This document shows positions 1-7,467 of a DNA stretch of 64,000 bases, piece by piece. How positions within the stretch are numbered: the first letter of the stretch is position 1; each line of letters begins with the position of its first letter. The stretch is taken from NCBI RefSeq assembly GCF_024502345.1, contig NZ_JALDNN010000001.1; one strand, written 5' to 3'. Under the pieces are notes generated by a model. It worked only from the letters and a program-made list of their open reading frames with translations. It searched no databases and was not told the origin of the DNA. Origin of the DNA: Escherichia coli. GTDB taxonomy: Bacteria; Pseudomonadota; Gammaproteobacteria; Enterobacterales; Enterobacteriaceae. Position numbers and translations under genes: made by a program.

Positions 1-281
1 GGCGTGTCTGCGGTTTTTCAACTATTCAGATACATCACTCCCATCACATTCATTCCTCCGCATCATAGGCATATAGGCTATATCACCTTGATATTTTTCT
101 TCTTCAGATAAAAACTGTTATCTATGTATACTTTTAAACCCAATCCGTGTAGAGTCTCTGCATAAGATAGTTTGCAGTTGCCACTTCAGCTTGCGCCATA
201 AACCGCCTGATTTTTGCCGCCACCTGGGTGATGCTGCCAACTTACTGATTTAGTGTATGATGGTGTTTTTGAGGTGCTCCA

Positions 282-557
282 GTGGCTTCTGTTTCTATCA
301 GCTGTCCCTCCTGTTCAGCTACTGACGGGGTGGTGCGTAACGGCAAAAGCACCGCCGGACATCAGCGCTATCTCTGCTCTCACTGCCGTAAAACATGGCA
401 ACTGCAGTTCACTTACACCGCTTCTCAACCCGGTACGCACCAGAAAATCATTGATATGGCCATGAATGGCGTTGGATGCCGGGCAACCGCCCGCATTATG
501 GGCGTTGGCCTCAACACGATTTTCCGCCATTTAAAAAACTCAGGCCGCAGTCGGTAA
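282..557 (+). CDS. insA: IS1 InsA
   Basis: 91-aa [27 protein letters not shown]..., recognised as IS1 InsA. Confidence 0.95.
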
Positions 558-979
558 CCTCGCGCATACAGCCGGGCAGTGACGTCATCGTCTGCGCGGA
601 AATGGACGAACAGTGGGGATACGTCGGGGCTAAATCGCGCCAGCGCTGGCTGTTTTACGCGTATGACAGGCTCCGGAAGACGGTTGTTGCGCACGTATTC
701 GGTGAACGCACTATGGCGACGCTGGGGCGTCTTATGAGCCTGCTGTCACCCTTTGACGTGGTGATATGGATGACGGATGGCTGGCCGCTGTATGAATCCC
801 GCCTGAAGGGAAAGCTGCACGTAATCAGCAAGCGATATACGCAGCGAATTGAGCGGCATAACCTGAATCTGAGGCAGCACCTGGCACGGCTGGGACGGAA
901 GTCGCTGTCGTTCTCAAAATCGGTGGAGCTGCATGACAAAGTCATCGGGCATTATCTGAACATAAAACACTATCAATAA
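476..979 (+). CDS. insB: IS1 InsB (expressed as InsAB' by frameshift)
   Basis: 167-aa ORF overlapping insA in the -1 frame, typical IS1 arrangement. Confidence 0.9.
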
Positions 980-994
980 GTTGGAGTCATTACC

Positions 995-1092
995 TAAGTC
1001 AGGTATAAATATAAGTGACATTGCCCAAGAATTCAAAACCTCGCGGCAAACCATTTTAAGAGCTAAAGCAAAAAATCAGACACCTGATATAT
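995..1092 (+). pseudogene. C-terminal HTH fragment of a recombinase/DNA-binding protein truncated by IS1
   Basis: Open frame running straight out of the IS1 right end: ...[31 protein letters not shown]. Resembles the C-terminal HTH of serine recombinases; no start codon of its own. Confidence 0.3.
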
Positions 1093-1191: not shown

Positions 1192-1359
1192 CTACGGTAG
1201 GGCTGGCCATTCAATATCCGGTGCAGTTGATGTATCAACACGGTTCAGCAACACCCGATACTTTTTCCAGGCTTCCAGCAACAAGGTTTCTTCCTCCGTT
1301 GCGATCTCCAGATCCACAGCATCCTGAAGCGGCGCTATATGCTCACTGGCTACCTGCAT
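1192..1359 (-). CDS. Hypothetical small acidic protein (55 aa), divergent from the CI-like gene
   Basis: [58 protein letters not shown]; below the 60-aa cutoff of the ORF track; sits in the cro position but shows no obvious HTH. Confidence 0.3.
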
Positions 1360-1439
1360 CAGGCTGTTTTTTGTTTCTTCCGCCTACCTGTAATACTGAT
1401 TGCGAGTTGAATGGTTTGATTTGTCATTATCAATTCCTA

Positions 1440-1537
1440 TTGGTATTGCAATGAATGAATAATAGCAATGCGTATTAATCCAAGCAATAGCAAAACGTGT
1501 TTTGACCATCAATACGCAAGCGTATAAATTAAAACTT
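1440..1537. promoter_or_regulatory. Operator/promoter region upstream of the CI-like gene
   Basis: AATAGCAAT at 1461-1469 and AATAGCAA at 1486-1493; palindromes ATTGCAAT (1445-1452) and ATACGC-AA-GCGTAT (1512-1525); TTGACC (1502-1507) followed by an AT-rich -10-like stretch ending ~9 nt before the ATG at 1538, suggesting a leaderless or near-leaderless transcript. Confidence 0.45.
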
Positions 1538-2230
1538 ATGAAAAAAGAAACTCTTGCTGATCGCTTAAACCTAGCGATGGAACAATCTGGAATGTCTCAA
1601 GGCGCTCTTGCAAAGGCGTCTGGCGTAGCTCAACCCACAATCTGGAGACTGACAAGCGGCAACGCTCGCGGCTCAACAAAAATTGTTGAAATAGCTAATG
1701 CATTGGGTGTTCGAACAGAATGGCTCTCATCAGGCATAGGCCCGATGAGAAATGACGGTCAACAATCAGGGAAGCCTGCTGTCAGCCATTCAAAATACTT
1801 CAAGATTGACGTTCTTGATATAGAAGTGAGTGCCGGGCCGGGAGTCATCAACCGTGAGTTTGTAGAAGTTCTACGCTCGGTTGAGTACTCGTTTGACGAT
1901 GCTCGTCACATGTTCGATGGTAGGAAGGCAGAAAATATCCGCATCATTAACGTACGCGGTGACAGCATGTCAGGAACGATCGAACCAGGTGATCTGCTGT
2001 TCGTTGATATCACGGTTAAATCTTTCGACGGTGATGGTATCTATGCGTTTCTGTATGACGACACCGCCCATGTAAAGCGCCTGCAAATGATGAAGGATAA
2101 GCTACTGGTTATCTCTGATAACAAGAGCTACTCACCGTGGGACCCGATCGAGAAAGACGAGATGAACCGGGTATTCATATTCGGTAAGGTTATTGGGAGC
2201 ATGCCGCAGACGTACAGAAAACACGGATAA
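1538..2230 (+). CDS. CI/LexA-type phage repressor (N-terminal XRE HTH, C-terminal S24 autopeptidase)
   Basis: 230 aa from MKKETLADRLNLAMEQSGMSQGALAKASGVAQPTIWRL (HTH) to ...NVRGDSMSGTIEPGDLLFVDI...AHVKRL (S24 Ser in GDSM and Lys in VKRL). The ORF track offers an upstream ATG at 1502, but that lies inside the promoter-like region. Confidence 0.85.
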   Translation: MKKETLADRLNLAMEQSGMSQGALAKASGVAQPTIWRLTSGNARGSTKIVEIANALGVRTEWLSSGIGPMRNDGQQSGKPAVSHSKYFKIDVLDIEVSAGPGVINREFVEVLRSVEYSFDDARHMFDGRKAENIRIINVRGDSMSGTIEPGDLLFVDITVKSFDGDGIYAFLYDDTAHVKRLQMMKDKLLVISDNKSYSPWDPIEKDEMNRVFIFGKVIGSMPQTYRKHG

Positions 2231-2312
2231 TCAGCCGCGTGTTGATGAGGCTTTTGGGTAATACGCTGAAGAAAATACCTTATAAAAAATAACATTACGG
2301 GAAAGGCAAAAA

Positions 2313-2576
2313 ATGAGTAATAAAACACTTGTTAAAAAATCAAATAACTGTGTCGATGCATACGCCGACGCGTTTGGCTACTCTTCGTTTGGTGACGGCT
2401 CTCAGCGCCTAGGTTCAATTTCTTTTTTTCATAATGTAACTGAATGGCCTGTTGATGAAAGTGACGATGTTGAGAACATAAAGTACAACATTGCAACCAT
2501 TAGAATGCCCGAAGAATTGATGCTTAAATTGGCTGACTTCATTCGCGACCAGCATGACAAAGCTAAAACAAACTAA
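2313..2576 (+). CDS. Hypothetical protein (87 aa), prophage cargo gene
   Basis: ORF with GGAAAGG ribosome-binding site 7 nt upstream; AT-rich compared with neighbours; no family recognised. Confidence 0.5.
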   Translation: MSNKTLVKKSNNCVDAYADAFGYSSFGDGSQRLGSISFFHNVTEWPVDESDDVENIKYNIATIRMPEELMLKLADFIRDQHDKAKTN

Positions 2577-2588
2577 TCGTAATTAATT

Positions 2589-3032
2589 ATGAAACACGAT
2601 TATTACGAAGCTCCAAACCTAAATGATAAAATTGCAAAGGCGGCAAAATCATTTTGTTTGCACTCCAGTGCGTCTTCCCAGCTAGCAGGTATATCTGGAA
2701 AAAGATGGGACATGCTACAATCAAGTGGTAGCAGTGGGTCTGGGAGTGATAACATGCCTGAAAAAGTTGCAAAACTGGAGTCCGATGTTGCTCATATCAA
2801 ACGAGACGTTGATGAACTTAAAACAGACGTTAAAGCTATCGACAAAAATATGATAACTATTCTTGCACGTCTGGACTCTATAAAAGAATCCTTAACAAAC
2901 AAGCCATCAAGTGATGCTGTCGATAGAAAGATTTCAGACGCAAAGCTTGCGGTATTGCTTGGTGTTCCAGCAATCATCGCTGCAGGAACAGGACTTTATA
3001 AGCTATCAATGTACTTTTTCTTTAGTGCTTAA
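2589..3032 (+). CDS. XhlA-like coiled-coil protein with C-terminal transmembrane helix
   Basis: C-terminal 92 aa MPEKVAKLESDVAHIKRDVDELKTDVKAIDKNMITILARLDSIKESL...AKLAVLLGVPAIIAAGTGLYKL: heptad-like coiled coil plus one hydrophobic helix, resembling phage hemolysin XhlA. The ATG at 2589 has no ribosome-binding site; the ATG at 2754 has GGGAG 7 nt upstream and may be the true start. Confidence 0.5.
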   Translation: MKHDYYEAPNLNDKIAKAAKSFCLHSSASSQLAGISGKRWDMLQSSGSSGSGSDNMPEKVAKLESDVAHIKRDVDELKTDVKAIDKNMITILARLDSIKESLTNKPSSDAVDRKISDAKLAVLLGVPAIIAAGTGLYKLSMYFFFSA

Positions 3033-3106
3033 GAAAATGCTCGCACCCTTGCATTAGGTAAAGCGATTTTTCATTCCCCATTACCCTCGCTCTTAACCAA
3101 TCATCT

Positions 3107-3136
3107 AAACCCGGCCACCGTGCCGGGTTTTCTTTT
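3107..3136 (+). terminator. Rho-independent terminator after the CI/cargo operon
   Basis: aaaCCCGGC-caccgt-GCCGGGttttctttt: GC stem, 6-nt loop and T-run, just downstream of the 3032 stop. Confidence 0.6.
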
Positions 3137-3261
3137 GCCCTCCCCTCATCACACACCGTTCAAAAAACCACCACGACCTCACTTCAGTTATCGCTATGCG
3201 ATGCAAGTCACAAAATTAATTCTTTTTGCTATCAAACATTTAATATCAAAACACATCAACT

Positions 3262-3308
3262 AATAGCAATAAGTATTGATATCACCAATAGCAATAGCTA
3301 TTATCACC
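3262..3308 (+). promoter_or_regulatory. Second operator set with pL-like promoter
   Basis: AATAGCAAT at 3262-3270; palindrome AATAGC-AATA-GCTATT at 3287-3302; TATCACC direct repeats at 3280-3286 and 3302-3308; TTGATA (3276-3281), 17-nt spacer, TATTAT (3299-3304) on the + strand. Confidence 0.4.
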
Positions 3309-3497
3309 ATATCGCAACAACACAACGATACGGCAACCACCTGATTCACCGTTGCGATGACCGCTTAGATCCGCAGCTTGAATTTCAGCAGGCTTCGGGG
3401 AGTGCGAGGGATGAAACGGACGCGTGAACGTCGGTGTGACCAGCTGAAATCAACTCAACATTTCATACCTTAGTCGCTTCAACGAGGCGGCTTAGTT

Positions 3498-3788
3498 ATG
3501 ACAACCGGCGGCCATCCACCGCCTGAATACGCGCAGAAGTCTTTATATGTTCAGCAGCCCAGCTTACGGGCAGGAGTTTTTATGGTTCATCAACATTACG
3601 GAACGCAGACCGTTAATCGCGGTGCGGTCATGCCAGGAATGCTGGTCAAACGCAAAGATGGTACCTGGACTGCATCAGCTAATTTACGCGGACGACTTTA
3701 TCTGCATCGCGGCATTGAGCGCACTTATACCCGTGACTTGCTCGTGGAAGTTTTTCTCGACGGACGCGGCAACGGTCTGAATCACTAA
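3498..3788 (+). CDS. Hypothetical prophage protein (96 aa)
   Basis: ORF with GAGG about 10 nt upstream; no family recognised; an internal start MVHQHYG at 3582 is also possible. Confidence 0.35.
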   Translation: MTTGGHPPPEYAQKSLYVQQPSLRAGVFMVHQHYGTQTVNRGAVMPGMLVKRKDGTWTASANLRGRLYLHRGIERTYTRDLLVEVFLDGRGNGLNH

Positions 3789-3863
3789 TCCCCTTTCCTG
3801 TTTTCCGAATCAGCCTGGCATTCCGCGGGCGATTTTTTCACAGCCATTTTCAGGAGTTCAGCC

Positions 3864-4148
3864 ATGAACGCTTATTACATTCAGGATCGTCTTGAGGCTC
3901 AGAGCTGGGCGCGTCACTACCAGCAGATCGCCCGTGAAGAGAAAGAGGCAGAACTGGCAGACGACATGGAAAAAGGCCTGCCCCAGCACCTGTTTGAATC
4001 GCTATGCATCGATCATTTGCAACGCCACGGGGCCAGCAAAAAAGCCATTAGGCGCGATCACTTTCATCTACTCCGTTACAAAGCGAGGCTGGGTATTTCC
4101 CGGCCTTTCTGTTATCAGAAATCCACTGAAAGCACAGCGGCTGGCTGA
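3864..4148 (+). CDS. Hypothetical prophage protein (94 aa)
   Basis: [31 protein letters not shown]... with AGGAG 9 nt upstream. Confidence 0.5.
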
Positions 4149-4175
4149 GAAGATAAATAATAAACGGGAGGCGGT

Positions 4176-4367
4176 ATGCACAAAGCATCTCCTGTTGAGT
4201 TAAGAACGAGTATTGAGATGGCACATAGCCTTGCTCAAATTGGAGTCAGGTTTGTGCCAATACCAGTAGAAACAGACGAAGAATTTCATACGTTAGCCAC
4301 ATCCCTTTCACAAAAGCTGGAAATGATGGTGGCGAAAGCAGAAGCAGATGAGAGAGACCAGGTATGA
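4176..4367 (+). CDS. Hypothetical prophage protein (63 aa)
   Basis: ORF MHKASPVELRTSIEMAHSLAQIGVRFVPIPVETDEEF... with GGGAGG 5 nt upstream. Confidence 0.5.
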   Translation: MHKASPVELRTSIEMAHSLAQIGVRFVPIPVETDEEFHTLATSLSQKLEMMVAKAEADERDQV

Positions 4368-4377
4368 CAACCACTGA

Positions 4378-4656
4378 ATGCATTTTTCTGGCAGCGGGCT
4401 TCATATTCTGTGTGCTTATGCTTTCCGTTTCCATGACCTCAGACACACCTGGGCAAGCTGGCTGATTCAGTCAGGCGTCCCATTATCAGTGCTTCAGGAA
4501 ATGGGCGGATGGGAGTCCATAGAAATGGTTCGTAGGTATGCTCACCTTGCGCCTAATCATTTGACAGAGCATGCGAGGAAAATAGACGACATTTTTGGTG
4601 ATAATGTCCCAAATATGTCCCACTCTGGAATTATGGAGGATATAAAGAAGGCGTAA
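4378..4656 (+). pseudogene. Tyrosine integrase, C-terminal fragment only
   Basis: ...[46 protein letters not shown]... carries the integrase catalytic box (HxLRHT, trailing Y) but only ~80 aa remain; ends 16 bp from the 3' end of argU, the expected attachment site. Confidence 0.8.
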
Positions 4657-4671
4657 CTGATTGAATTGTAA

Positions 4672-4748
4672 TGGCGCGCCCTGCAGGATTCGAACCTGCG
4701 GCCCACGACTTAGAAGGTCGTTGCTCTATCCAACTGAGCTAAGGGCGC
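4672..4748 (-). tRNA. argU: tRNA-Arg (anticodon UCU)
   Basis: Reverse complement reads GCGCCCTTAGCTCAGTTGGATAGAGCAACGACCTTCTAAGTCGTGGGCCGCAGGTTCGAATCCTGCAGGGCGCGCCA (77 nt, anticodon TCT, CCA end). Confidence 0.95.
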
Positions 4749-4990
4749 GTTGATACCGCAATGCGGTGTAATCGCGTGAATTATACGGTCAACCCTTGCT
4801 GAGTCAATGGCTTTTGATCTGGTTGCTGAACAAGTGAACGACCGCGTCTGATTTTCTGATTTATTTCGCTATAGCGGCAAACAAACACACACCGCTGCGC
4901 GTCTGAATCAAGAAAACCCGTATTTTCATGTATCAAAGTACAATTTACCGCCCTAACGGAAAATTGTCCGCTCCTATGAGACTGGTAACT

Positions 4991-5623
4991 ATGAAACCAA
5001 CGTCGGTGATCATTATGGATACTCATCCTATCATCAGAATGTCTATTGAAGTTCTGTTGCAAAAAAACAGTGAATTGCAGATTGTCCTGAAAACGGATGA
5101 TTACCGCATAACCATCGATTATCTCCGAACCCGTCCTGTTGATTTAATCATTATGGATATAGACTTGCCCGGAACAGACGGTTTTACCTTCCTGAAAAGG
5201 ATCAAACAAATCCAGAGCACAGTGAAAGTGTTATTTTTATCATCGAAATCAGAATGCTTTTATGCTGGCAGAGCGATACAAGCTGGTGCTAACGGTTTTG
5301 TCAGTAAATGCAATGATCAGAATAATATTTTTCATGCCGTTCAGATGATCCTCTCCGGATACACGTTTTTTCCCAGCGAAACGCTTAACTATATAAAAAG
5401 CAATAAATGTAGTACGAATAGTTCAACGGTCACTGTGCTATCTAATCGTGAAGTGACCATATTACGTTATCTGGTTAGCGGATTATCTAATAAAGAAATT
5501 GCCGATAAGTTATTACTTAGCAATAAAACAGTTAGTGCGCATAAATCTAATATTTATGGCAAGCTAGGTTTGCATTCAATTGTAGAGCTTATCGACTACG
5601 CCAAATTATACGAATTAATATAA
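4991..5623 (+). CDS. fimZ: Fimbrial response regulator FimZ (LuxR-type)
   Basis: 210 aa from MKPTSVIIMDTHPIIRMSIEVLL...; receiver domain plus C-terminal LuxR HTH. The ORF track's upstream start at 4928 is probably an overcall. Confidence 0.9.
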   Translation: MKPTSVIIMDTHPIIRMSIEVLLQKNSELQIVLKTDDYRITIDYLRTRPVDLIIMDIDLPGTDGFTFLKRIKQIQSTVKVLFLSSKSECFYAGRAIQAGANGFVSKCNDQNNIFHAVQMILSGYTFFPSETLNYIKSNKCSTNSSTVTVLSNREVTILRYLVSGLSNKEIADKLLLSNKTVSAHKSNIYGKLGLHSIVELIDYAKLYELI

Positions 5624-5720
5624 TATTAATTATAATTGATCATAAATATCGCATCCGCTTTCGCCGGTGATGCTGCCAACTTACTGATTTAGTGTATGAT
5701 GGTGTTTTTGAGGTGCTCCA

Positions 5721-5996
5721 GTGGCTTCTGTTTCTATCAGCTGTCCCTCCTGTTCAGCTACTGACGGGGTGGTGCGTAACGGCAAAAGCACCGCCGGACA
5801 TCAGCGCTATCTCTGCTCTCACTGCCGTAAAACATGGCAACTGCAGTTCACTTACACCGCTTCTCAACCCGGTACGCACCAGAAAATCATTGATATGGCC
5901 ATGAATGGCGTTGGATGCCGGGCAACCGCCCGCATTATGGGCGTTGGCCTCAACACGATTTTCCGCCATTTAAAAAACTCAGGCCGCAGTCGGTAA
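5721..5996 (+). CDS. insA: IS1 InsA
   Basis: Protein identical to copy 1 InsA. Confidence 0.95.
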
Positions 5997-6418
5997 CCTC
6001 GCGCATACAGCCGGGCAGTGACGTCATCGTCTGCGCGGAAATGGACGAACAGTGGGGATACGTCGGGGCTAAATCGCGCCAGCGCTGGCTGTTTTACGCG
6101 TATGACAGGCTCCGGAAGACGGTTGTTGCGCACGTATTCGGTGAACGCACTATGGCGACGCTGGGGCGTCTTATGAGCCTGCTGTCACCCTTTGACGTGG
6201 TGATATGGATGACGGATGGCTGGCCGCTGTATGAATCCCGCCTGAAGGGAAAGCTGCACGTAATCAGCAAGCGATATACGCAGCGAATTGAGCGGCATAA
6301 CCTGAATCTGAGGCAGCACCTGGCACGGCTGGGACGGAAGTCGCTGTCGTTCTCAAAATCGGTGGAGCTGCATGACAAAGTCATCGGGCATTATCTGAAC
6401 ATAAAACACTATCAATAA
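5915..6418 (+). CDS. insB: IS1 InsB
   Basis: Protein identical to copy 1 InsB. Confidence 0.9.
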
Positions 6419-6600
6419 GTTGGAGTCATTACCCGAAAAATGAAGCTTTCAATCTCAGCGACCTCAGCGACGGTGCGCCTCACCTTCGCAAGAGGTCGCT
6501 TCACGCGATAAATCTGAAACGAAACCTGACAGCGTGCCCCGCTTCTGACAAAATAGGCGCATCCCCTTCGACCTACGTAACAGATGGAATCCTCTCTCTG

Positions 6601-7467
6601 ATGGCAGCAAAGATTATTGACGGTAAAACGATTGCGCAGCAGGTGCGCTCTGAAGTTGCTCAAAAAGTTCAGGCGCGTATTGCAGCCGGACTGCGGGCAC
6701 CAGGACTGGCCGTTGTGCTGGTGGGTAGTAACCCTGCATCGCAAATTTATGTCGCAAGCAAACGCAAGGCTTGTGAAGAAGTCGGGTTCGTCTCCCGCTC
6801 TTATGACCTCCCGGAAACCACCAGCGAAGCGGAGCTGTTGGAGCTTATCGATGCGCTGAATGCCGACAACACCATCGATGGCATTCTGGTTCAACTGCCG
6901 TTACCGGCGGGTATTGATAACGTCAAAGTGCTGGAACGTATTCATCCGGACAAAGACGTGGACGGTTTCCATCCTTATAACGTCGGTCGTCTGTGCCAGC
7001 GCGCGCCGCGTCTGCGTCCCTGCACCCCGCGCGGTATCGTCACGCTGCTTGAGCGTTACAACATTGATACCTTCGGCCTCAACGCCGTGGTGATTGGCGC
7101 ATCGAATATCGTCGGTCGTCCAATGAGCATGGAACTGTTGCTCGCAGGTTGCACCACTACCGTGACTCACCGTTTCACTAAAAATCTGCGTCACCACGTA
7201 GAAAATGCCGATCTGTTGATCGTTGCCGTCGGCAAGCCGGGCTTTATTCCTGGTGACTGGATCAAAGAAGGCGCAATTGTGATTGATGTCGGCATCAACC
7301 GTCTGGAAAATGGCAAAGTTGTGGGCGACGTCGTGTTTGAAGACGCGGCTAAACGCGCCTCATACATTACGCCTGTTCCGGGCGGCGTTGGCCCGATGAC
7401 GGTTGCCACGCTGATTGAAAACACGCTTCAGGCGTGCGTTGAATATCATGATCCACAGGGTGAGTAA
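6601..7467 (+). CDS. folD: Methylenetetrahydrofolate dehydrogenase/cyclohydrolase
   Basis: 288 aa, [23 protein letters not shown]... Confidence 0.95.

Follow-up and report, generated by a model that had tools for sequence, protein, structure and literature searches.

Within a 64,000-nucleotide stretch of the Escherichia coli contig NZ_JALDNN010000001.1 (hereafter the window, numbered from its first letter), we analysed two small adjacent genes, termed ORF1 and ORF2 (open reading frames 1 and 2), which lie behind a CI-like repressor gene in a decayed lambdoid prophage at the argU site. The analysis establishes the pair as a swappable, repressor-linked cassette coding for a predicted soluble protein and a predicted tail-anchored coiled-coil membrane protein, with a modular organization and a conserved internal start codon. 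The region downstream of prophage repressors has yielded functions of the rexAB, bstA and sieA types, which influence what phages are able to infect lysogens, pathogens included.

The two genes occupy a slot between the stop codon of the repressor gene and a terminator of the phage backbone (Table 1). In PhiR30_1 and PhiR70_1, two phages with the same cI, homology to the window is lost at positions 2229–2231, at the cI stop codon, and is regained at 3109–3110, which are the first bases of the terminator stem. Between these points PhiR30_1 has two other genes and PhiR70_1 has three, which are unknown. The break of homology at the slot edges and the presence of other genes in phages with the same cI show that the cargo found between repressor gene and terminator is an insert that can be exchanged. 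The identical cassette is also found behind at least three different repressors in E. coli, at the argU and icd integration sites. The slot differs in composition from its surroundings, with a G+C content of 39.3% (39.0% for ORF1 and 39.9% for ORF2, with 31% at the third codon positions of the latter), compared with 47.4% for cI, 51.2% for kil and 52% for the window. A first-pass annotation of the window had described two AT-rich genes as swappable cargo in a rexAB-equivalent slot, and the genes, their composition and the nature of the slot are all borne out by these comparisons. More generally, the interval from cI to pL, or from cI to N, is described in the literature as a hotspot of mosaicism, in which rexAB and bstA are found (PMC8585504). 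In PhiR30_1 the slot (L093:2461-3815), which follows a 97%-identical cI, holds PDC-M63A (E = 8e-36) and PDC-M63B (E = 4e-42); PDC-M63 is a candidate defence system of PADLOC.

ORF1 and ORF2 have the same orientation as the repressor gene, and no terminator is predicted between it and the pair. A separate conserved promoter for the cassette was rejected, since none is predicted in 2231–2312 and the DNA homology with UPF_BP1, a P22-like Salmonella phage, starts only 27 nt before ORF1; no terminator belonging to the cassette itself is predicted either. The coexpression with the repressor proposed in the first-pass annotation is upheld as regards orientation and the uninterrupted layout, from which co-transcription would be expected. 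From the position of the cassette, and by analogy with rexAB, bstA and sieA, we infer that it is expressed in lysogens.

Table 1. The cassette and its surroundings, in window coordinates (TM, transmembrane).
Feature	Positions	Strand	Remarks
IS1 copy	~250-1000		One of two copies bracketing the remnant
Tail-fibre-assembly fragment	1192-1359		Remnant of the prophage
oR-type operator block, with TAATAGCAAT / CAATAGCAA motifs	1460-1509		Upstream of the repressor gene
CI-like repressor (helix–turn–helix, HTH, and S24 peptidase)	1541-2230	+	PHROG 4, E = 9e-70; PHROG 6201, E = 2e-46
Variable cargo slot	2231-3108	+	878 bp, between cI stop codon and backbone terminator
ORF1, 87 aa	2313-2576	+	Predicted soluble partner; PHROG 4231 only
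ORF2, long form, 147 aa	2589-3032	+	PHROG 3556, E = 2e-58 over residues 1-146
Internal Shine–Dalgarno-like GGGAG, from linker codons	2742-2746	+	7 nt before ATG 2754
Probable short isoform, 92 aa (coiled coil and TM only)	2754-3032	+	Conserved in-frame internal start
Heptad coiled-coil segment, ORF2 residues about 57-103	2757-2897	+	Perfect 3-4 hydrophobic spacing
C-terminal TM helix, ORF2 residues about 118-139	2940-3005	+	Followed by about 8 residues
Intrinsic terminator closing the cI–ORF1–ORF2 unit	3107-3130	+	9-bp stem, 6 G–C pairs, T-run; feature taken to 3140; conserved phage backbone
oL-type operator block	3261-3310	+	Repeat of the oR block
pL-like promoter	3276-3304	+	10/12 positions matched; reads into kil
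kil	3498/3582-3788	+	PHROG 294, E = 1e-37
Truncated gam	3864-4148		Diverges after about 76 aa
Integrase fragment	4378-4656		Most of int lost
tRNA-Arg	4675-4748	-	E. coli chromosomal part of the window
fimZ	4928-5623		E. coli chromosomal part of the window
folD	6601-7467		E. coli chromosomal part of the window

ORF1 is a real gene and not a chance ORF, because its homologues in Serratia, Leclercia and Raoultella are 60–78% identical, with 33 invariant columns. It belongs to no recognisable family, as first annotated: Pfam and NCBIfam give no match, the function of the sole matching family (PHROG 4231) is unknown and a sequence search of the PDB found nothing. Its AlphaFold2 model (predicted local distance difference test, pLDDT, of 77) comprises a four-stranded β-sheet and a C-terminal helix, and its sequence contains no hydrophobic segment.

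ORF2 is likewise a real gene, because 65 homologous clusters were found for it. It is laid out as a partner-type-specific N-terminal region (residues 1–41), a Ser/Gly linker (residues 42–55, including SSGSSGSGSDN, just before the internal start), a coiled coil and a C-terminal TM helix. Besides the heptad spacing, a low-confidence model gives a helix at residues 56–103, and the 19-residue Kyte–Doolittle windows reach at least 1.6 at starts 115 and 118–121, with a maximum of 1.80 for residues 118–136. Both the heptad coiled coil and the single C-terminal TM helix of the first-pass annotation are thus recovered, and ORF2 is predicted to be a tail-anchored inner-membrane protein with its coiled coil on the cytoplasmic side. 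Searching the PDB with its sequence gave generic coiled coils only, often trimeric (best E = 1e-3). The family profile (ORF2 residues ~50–105; 2736–2903 in the window) has mostly trimeric coiled coils as its best PDB matches, at E-values of 1e-3 to 0.1, among them reovirus sigma-1, the P22/Sf6-type tail-needle ‘DNA stabilization protein’, Lpp, RSV F and gp41, and one relative also matches a PHROG tail-needle family. ORF2 may therefore form a trimer, as these matches hint, or the matches may be just compositional.

Partner-specific modules and a conserved internal start

An exhaustive profile search gave 258 clusters (at 50% identity) with E ≤ 1e-10 for the Enterobacterales prophage family of ORF2, whose outer boundary is blurred because weaker matches included long repetitive coiled-coil proteins. 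The relatives follow a common plan, in which a variable N-terminal region of 0–80 residues precedes a linker rich in Gly, then Met or, rarely, Val, and the conserved start of the coiled coil, ME/LExRVAKLESDVxYI+xDV. The coiled coil varies by exact heptads (insertions of exactly seven residues) and ends in one of several unrelated C-terminal TM tails; a C-terminal hydrophobic segment is found in 43 of 47 distinct relatives. At each of the 47 distinct loci, a partner gene lies upstream on the same strand, with a gap of −29 to +29 nt to the anchor gene, i.e. the homologue of ORF2. These partners are of unrelated types: the ORF1 family, proteins of 93–98 aa (PHROG 12039), β-rich proteins of 132–167 aa (PHROG 5893), Cys4 proteins (PHROG 4293) and several others. 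Homology between ORF1 and the 93-aa type was suspected from a strand–helix pattern common to their C-termini and was rejected (hhalign probability of 0.15).

Over the 47 distinct pairs, the type of the partner closely follows the N-terminal type of the anchor, with an adjusted Rand index (ARI) of 0.80 and an adjusted mutual information (AMI) of 0.85, compared with an ARI of 0.05 and an AMI of 0.15 for the C-terminal type. The same partner/anchor arrangement is found in four distant metagenomic members. The DNA homology between the window and UPF_BP1 (84%) covers 2286–2761, which corresponds to ORF1 and the N-terminal region of ORF2, and stops at the linker/internal start, beyond which the C-terminal halves are just distantly related. 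Its end at 2761 places a mosaic joint at the linker/internal start, and its limits indicate that ORF1 and the N-terminus of ORF2 behave as one module, and the coiled coil and TM helix as another. The first-pass annotation had presented two cargo genes; both are real, but they are not independent, since ORF1 and the N-terminus of ORF2 form one coupled module that is linked to an exchangeable coiled-coil/TM part. A physical link between ORF1 and the N-terminus of ORF2 would be in keeping with these comparisons of sequences.

Two members of the family depart from the usual arrangement. An E. coli protein of 134 aa (P0070) is an in-frame ORF1::ORF2 fusion, which runs from the N-terminus of ORF1 to ‘DVENIK’ and continues as an ORF2 of the UPF_BP1 type after the latter's own ‘DVENIK’; it seems to have arisen by deletion across a short motif that ORF1 and ORF2 have in common. 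At an IMG/VR locus (L034:1022-1761), the partner is a second coiled-coil/TM protein (99 aa; PHROG 3556, E = 1e-11), making tandem anchor genes.

ORF2 has two candidate start codons. The ATG at 2589 lacks a Shine–Dalgarno (SD) sequence and lies 12 nt past the stop codon of ORF1, consistent with translational coupling, whereas the ATG at 2754 has an SD-like sequence 7 nt upstream (Table 1). In the 34 distinct DNA contexts of the family, the linker is followed 33 times by ATG and once by GTG, and every one of them has GGAG, GAGG or GGGG 5–12 nt upstream of this codon. The mean anti-SD pairing energy is −10.1 kcal/mol, compared with −7.1 kcal/mol after synonymous recoding with E. coli codon usage and −8.4 kcal/mol with uniform usage, and none of 500 synonymous shuffles reached the observed value. 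All of the more than 47 distinct relatives keep the reading frame open ahead of the internal start, despite their unrelated sequence types. Within each type this N-terminal region is kept as protein (for example, YYExPNL...AAKSSSLH and GKLLVAYSD..GS.VG.EFS), and distant comparisons reveal a third-position excess; its non-synonymous change also exceeds that of the C-terminal region. Gene callers are split on the relatives, many of which are annotated in the short form only. Because the internal start and its SD sequence are conserved while the upstream region is also coding, two products are the most economical reading. From these sequence features both starts are probably used, giving a 147-aa form, probably via coupling to ORF1, and a 92-aa form reduced to the anchor. 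The first-pass annotation had correctly described the two starts, one bare and the other preceded by GGGAG and by the linker, and had offered them as alternatives; as both appear to be used, this choice is probably a false one.

Genomic neighbourhoods and comparison with known systems

Of 5426 complete E. coli genomes, 197 carry the cassette at an identity of at least 99%; most of them are enterohaemorrhagic E. coli (EHEC) of types O26:H11 and O111. A further 54 records match it at 80–90% identity (about 81–82% in the rows sampled), and Salmonella, Klebsiella, Enterobacter, Serratia, Pantoea and Erwinia carry forms related to it. All annotations call it hypothetical. We carried out a census of the neighbourhoods of 80 IMG/VR loci, 75 of which could be scored, the other five being on truncated contigs. 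In 56 of the 80 loci a CI/HTH repressor gene precedes the cassette on the same strand at a distance of at most 900 nt (the ten examined by PHROG are all repressors) and in nine the cassette follows Mnt, in the slot that orf59a–sieA has in P22; altogether, 65 of the 75 scorable loci are directly downstream of a lysogeny repressor. Eight loci are in tail regions, among tape-measure, major-tail or minor-tail genes, where morons are classically found, one adjoins the Ant anti-repressor and one is unclassified. Homologues consistently placed in lysis cassettes, an outcome that the first-pass annotation had named as speaking against its reading, are not what the census revealed: the 65 loci are in lysogeny-expressed slots, and none of the 75 scorable loci has a lysis gene among its annotated neighbours, no explicit scan for endolysins or holins having been run.

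The pair of the window sits behind cI and not mnt. In UPF_BP1 and in P22-like Serratia and Leclercia prophages, by comparison, the ORF1 homologue (95%, 63% and 70% identical, respectively) directly follows or overlaps mnt, and the coiled-coil/TM gene comes next, facing gene 16. This position between mnt and gene 16 is that of orf59a–sieA in P22 itself. The Serratia prophage has a third small gene after the pair, coding for 101 aa with a signal-peptide-like N-terminus (L005:5957-6262), and Leclercia has a hydrophobic ORF of 33 aa at the same place (L007:5704-5805); neither is conserved across the family.

Among known systems, RexA/RexB and the cassette have much in common: the slot and strand with respect to the repressor, the kind of terminator, the flanking oR/oL-type repeats, the association of one soluble cytoplasmic component with one inner-membrane component and, as proposed here, the logic of a sensor combined with a membrane effector. 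There is no sequence relationship between them, however. RexB is polytopic with four TM helices; ORF2 combines a single TM helix at its C-terminus with a long coiled coil, and itself bears a partner-specific N-terminal region and an internal start. Homology to RexAB was rejected, as a scan of ORF1 and ORF2 against PADLOC-DB, which we take to include RexAB models, gave only coiled-coil noise at E ≤ 1 (PbeC, LmuB and JetC, with E ≥ 0.004). The 5027 models of PADLOC-DB v2 gave no credible match to any system for ORF1, ORF2, three other partner types and two other anchor types.

The order of orf59a–sieA in P22 is also that of the pair in P22-like Salmonella, Serratia and Leclercia prophages, namely mnt, a small gene and a membrane-protein gene facing gene 16. 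Expression with the maintenance repressor would be a further shared trait, judging for the pair from its position. SieA acts alone, whereas the ORF2 family always comes with a partner gene. That ORF2 could be SieA was ruled out: it has one hydrophobic segment as opposed to four, lacks the conserved SieA motif FxRYPxEAxxFNK (PMC10883804) and gives a best BLASTP E-value of 2.6. BstA of BTP1 and PDC-M63 lie, like the cassette, directly downstream of a prophage repressor and presumably share its promoter; these proteins are unrelated to those of the cassette, however, and BstA is a single large soluble DNA-associated protein.

The label ‘XhlA-like’ that the first-pass annotation gave to ORF2 holds at the level of architecture only. 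The 92-aa short isoform has the layout of XhlA, a protein of about 90 aa whose coiled coil leads into one TM helix at the C-terminus, PHROG families labelled hemolysin match at E-values of 1e-4 to 8e-6 and NCBI names one Klebsiella relative ‘hemolysin XhlA’. Pfam XhlA (PF10779), however, scores ORF2 below threshold (i-Evalue of 0.11) and reaches E ≤ 1e-3 in only two of 28 relatives, and the generic coiled-coil families FlaC_arch and SlyX score as well or better. The context is that of a lysogeny repressor and not of a holin and an endolysin, as in the Bacillus PBSX lysis module xhlA–xhlB–xlyA, and ORF2 differs further by its linker, its N-terminal module and a partner gene that always lies upstream. 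The likeness is that of a generic coiled coil with a TM helix, and homology is unproven.

In P22 sieB/esc and lambda S107/S105, in-frame dual starts build a regulator or a self-immunity factor into one gene. ORF2 resembles them in its conserved internal in-frame start, from which a shorter product that keeps the C-terminal membrane part is predicted. It differs from lambda S in that its starts are 55 codons apart instead of two, and from both systems in that its longer form carries a module tied to the partner type; the use of its two starts is deduced from conservation. Repressor-adjacent cargo with exclusion potential is thus of a known kind, whereas the architecture of the cassette, the partner-specific modules and the conserved dual start are not described in the databases, family libraries or literature searched, which assign no function to the cassette either. 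We found no paper on ECO26_0580 and none linking XhlA-like proteins to defence.

Possible functions of the cassette

From its position and architecture, we tentatively favour the view that the pair is a lysogen-expressed phage-exclusion or abortive-infection cassette with a mechanism like that of RexAB. The maintenance promoter would drive transcription of the cassette along with that of the repressor gene, up to the backbone terminator. The single C-terminal TM helix of ORF2 would anchor a long coiled coil, probably an oligomer, on the cytoplasmic side, tied through the flexible Ser/Gly linker to a short N-terminal region working with soluble ORF1. ORF1 and this N-terminal region would form an exchangeable specificity or sensor module that keeps the coiled-coil/TM module inactive, until a superinfecting phage provides a cue that releases the latter to assemble in the membrane, dissipate the membrane potential and abort the infection. 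The short isoform could set the threshold or confer self-immunity, in the manner of SieB/Esc or of holin/antiholin pairs. It is a more doubtful step to see in the pair the founding example of an undescribed but widespread modular two-component anti-phage family of Enterobacterales prophages. In such a family an exchangeable sensing module, made up of one of several unrelated small partners and the matching N-terminal peptide of the anchor, would be joined by the Gly-rich linker to a conserved coiled-coil/tail-anchor effector, with an internally initiated anchor-only isoform as a built-in regulator or self-immunity factor. Should the cassette prove to act in defence or exclusion, it would represent a new type of small size, in which specificity is plugged in as a module and the effector has two starts, and it would be relevant to the prediction of host range in phage therapy and to the retention of prophage remnants.

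Several points weigh against this picture. Adjacency alone, with recombination confined to the conserved DNA of the linker and the coiled-coil start, could give the covariation between partner and N-terminus. AlphaFold2 prediction of ORF1 joined to ORF2 by a 30-residue linker (six paired rows) gave a mean pLDDT of 42 and no sign of docking. Gly-rich linkers and Gly codons intrinsically favour SD-like strings, and the 34 contexts of the internal start are phylogenetically related. Finally, with a single TM helix and almost no periplasmic exposure, ORF2 is no obvious pore former.

The occurrence in the sieA slot and at tail-moron sites makes a block of DNA entry nearly as plausible as the RexAB-like mechanism, even if it too must be considered rather doubtful. 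The cassette would then provide non-lethal superinfection exclusion at the inner membrane, as SieA and HK97 gp15 do, with the membrane-anchored coiled coil, to whose N-terminus ORF1 is bound, disturbing the DNA-delivery channel or the ejection proteins of the incoming phage and hence preventing genome entry. ORF2 is a predicted membrane protein, and eight loci are morons beside tape-measure or other tail genes, the type of site at which the gene for HK97 gp15 is found. In P22-like prophages the pair takes the exact slot of orf59a–sieA, and other genes must fill this slot in many phages, since sieA is carried by just 22 of 66 P22-like phages (PMC10883804). On the other hand, ORF2 has no similarity to SieA, by prediction almost all of the protein lies in the cytoplasm and about eight residues lie past the TM helix, and a soluble cytoplasmic partner with exchangeable sensor-like modules fits intracellular sensing better. 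We consider it unlikely that the pair serves prophage addiction in the manner of a toxin–antitoxin system, or another form of lysogenic conversion that has nothing to do with phages. ORF2 would then act on the membrane as a toxin or modulate the envelope, ORF1, translationally coupled to it, would neutralise it, and the benefit would be the retention of the prophage or an altered physiology of the host. A small upstream gene tightly coupled to a membrane-protein gene with a partner-specific N-terminus does recall antitoxin–toxin pairs, and the remnant has lost cro, replication genes, gam/bet/exo and int while cI–ORF1–ORF2 stayed intact. Retention in one remnant is a single anecdote, however; no known toxin–antitoxin family matched ORF1 or ORF2 in PHROG, NCBIfam or Pfam, and the strict preference for classic exclusion-gene slots would be left unexplained.

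Two further explanations are much less probable. One holds that only the short 92-aa ORF is real, the 55 codons upstream being an untranslated leader and ORF1 an unrelated neighbour. The lack of an SD sequence at 2589 next to a strong one at 2754, the annotation pipelines that call just the short form and the greater non-synonymous change of the N-terminal region would suit it. We nevertheless judge it very unlikely in view of the open frame, protein-level conservation and third-position excess upstream of the internal start, as well as the alignment of PHROG 3556 from residue 1 and the agreement between N-terminal and partner types. The other, to which we attach the lowest probability of all, is a lysis accessory of the XhlA/holin type acting in the prophage's own lytic cycle. 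It would account for the coiled coil with a C-terminal TM helix, for the hemolysin-labelled PHROGs, the two relatives passing with Pfam XhlA and the name of the Klebsiella relative, and the dual start recalls holin/antiholin pairs. ORF2 itself misses the Pfam XhlA threshold, with FlaC and SlyX as good or better, and the census placed 65 of the 75 scorable loci behind the lysogeny repressor, on its strand, and none beside lysis genes among the annotated neighbours, no explicit scan for endolysins or holins having been run.

The prophage remnant

In the remnant that hosts the cassette (1384–4656), homology with the cro–cI intergenic region of phages with the same cI starts at 1384. Here cro, the replication genes and bet/exo are gone, as are most of gam and most of int; cI, ORF1, ORF2, the terminator, oL/pL and kil have stayed intact. 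The repressor gene is 96–98% identical at the DNA level to annotated cI genes of E. coli phages, has a possible alternative start (TTG 1502) and codes for a protein with a RefSeq homologue labelled S24 family peptidase. A 50-nt direct repeat (74% identity) relates the two operator blocks of Table 1, so that the repressor and its cargo are bracketed by an operator-type repeat pair, as by oR and oL in lambda. Between the pL-like promoter and kil (3140–3500) there is no N-like gene, either here or in an intact O26:H11 relative (L002), and a put-like structured RNA downstream of pL (3305–3480) was ruled out by a folding z-score of −0.22.

Two IS1 copies with identical ORF sets (~250–1000 and ~5690–6420) flank the remnant together with argU and fimZ, and one of them adjoins the tail-fibre-assembly fragment, which suggests that an IS1-mediated deletion shaped the remnant. 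The Rfam family IS009 (RF02111) matches over its full length at 1226–1426 on the minus strand, with 177.7 bits for a gathering score of 117; this match overlaps the tail-fibre-assembly fragment and reaches the truncated cro end of the remnant.

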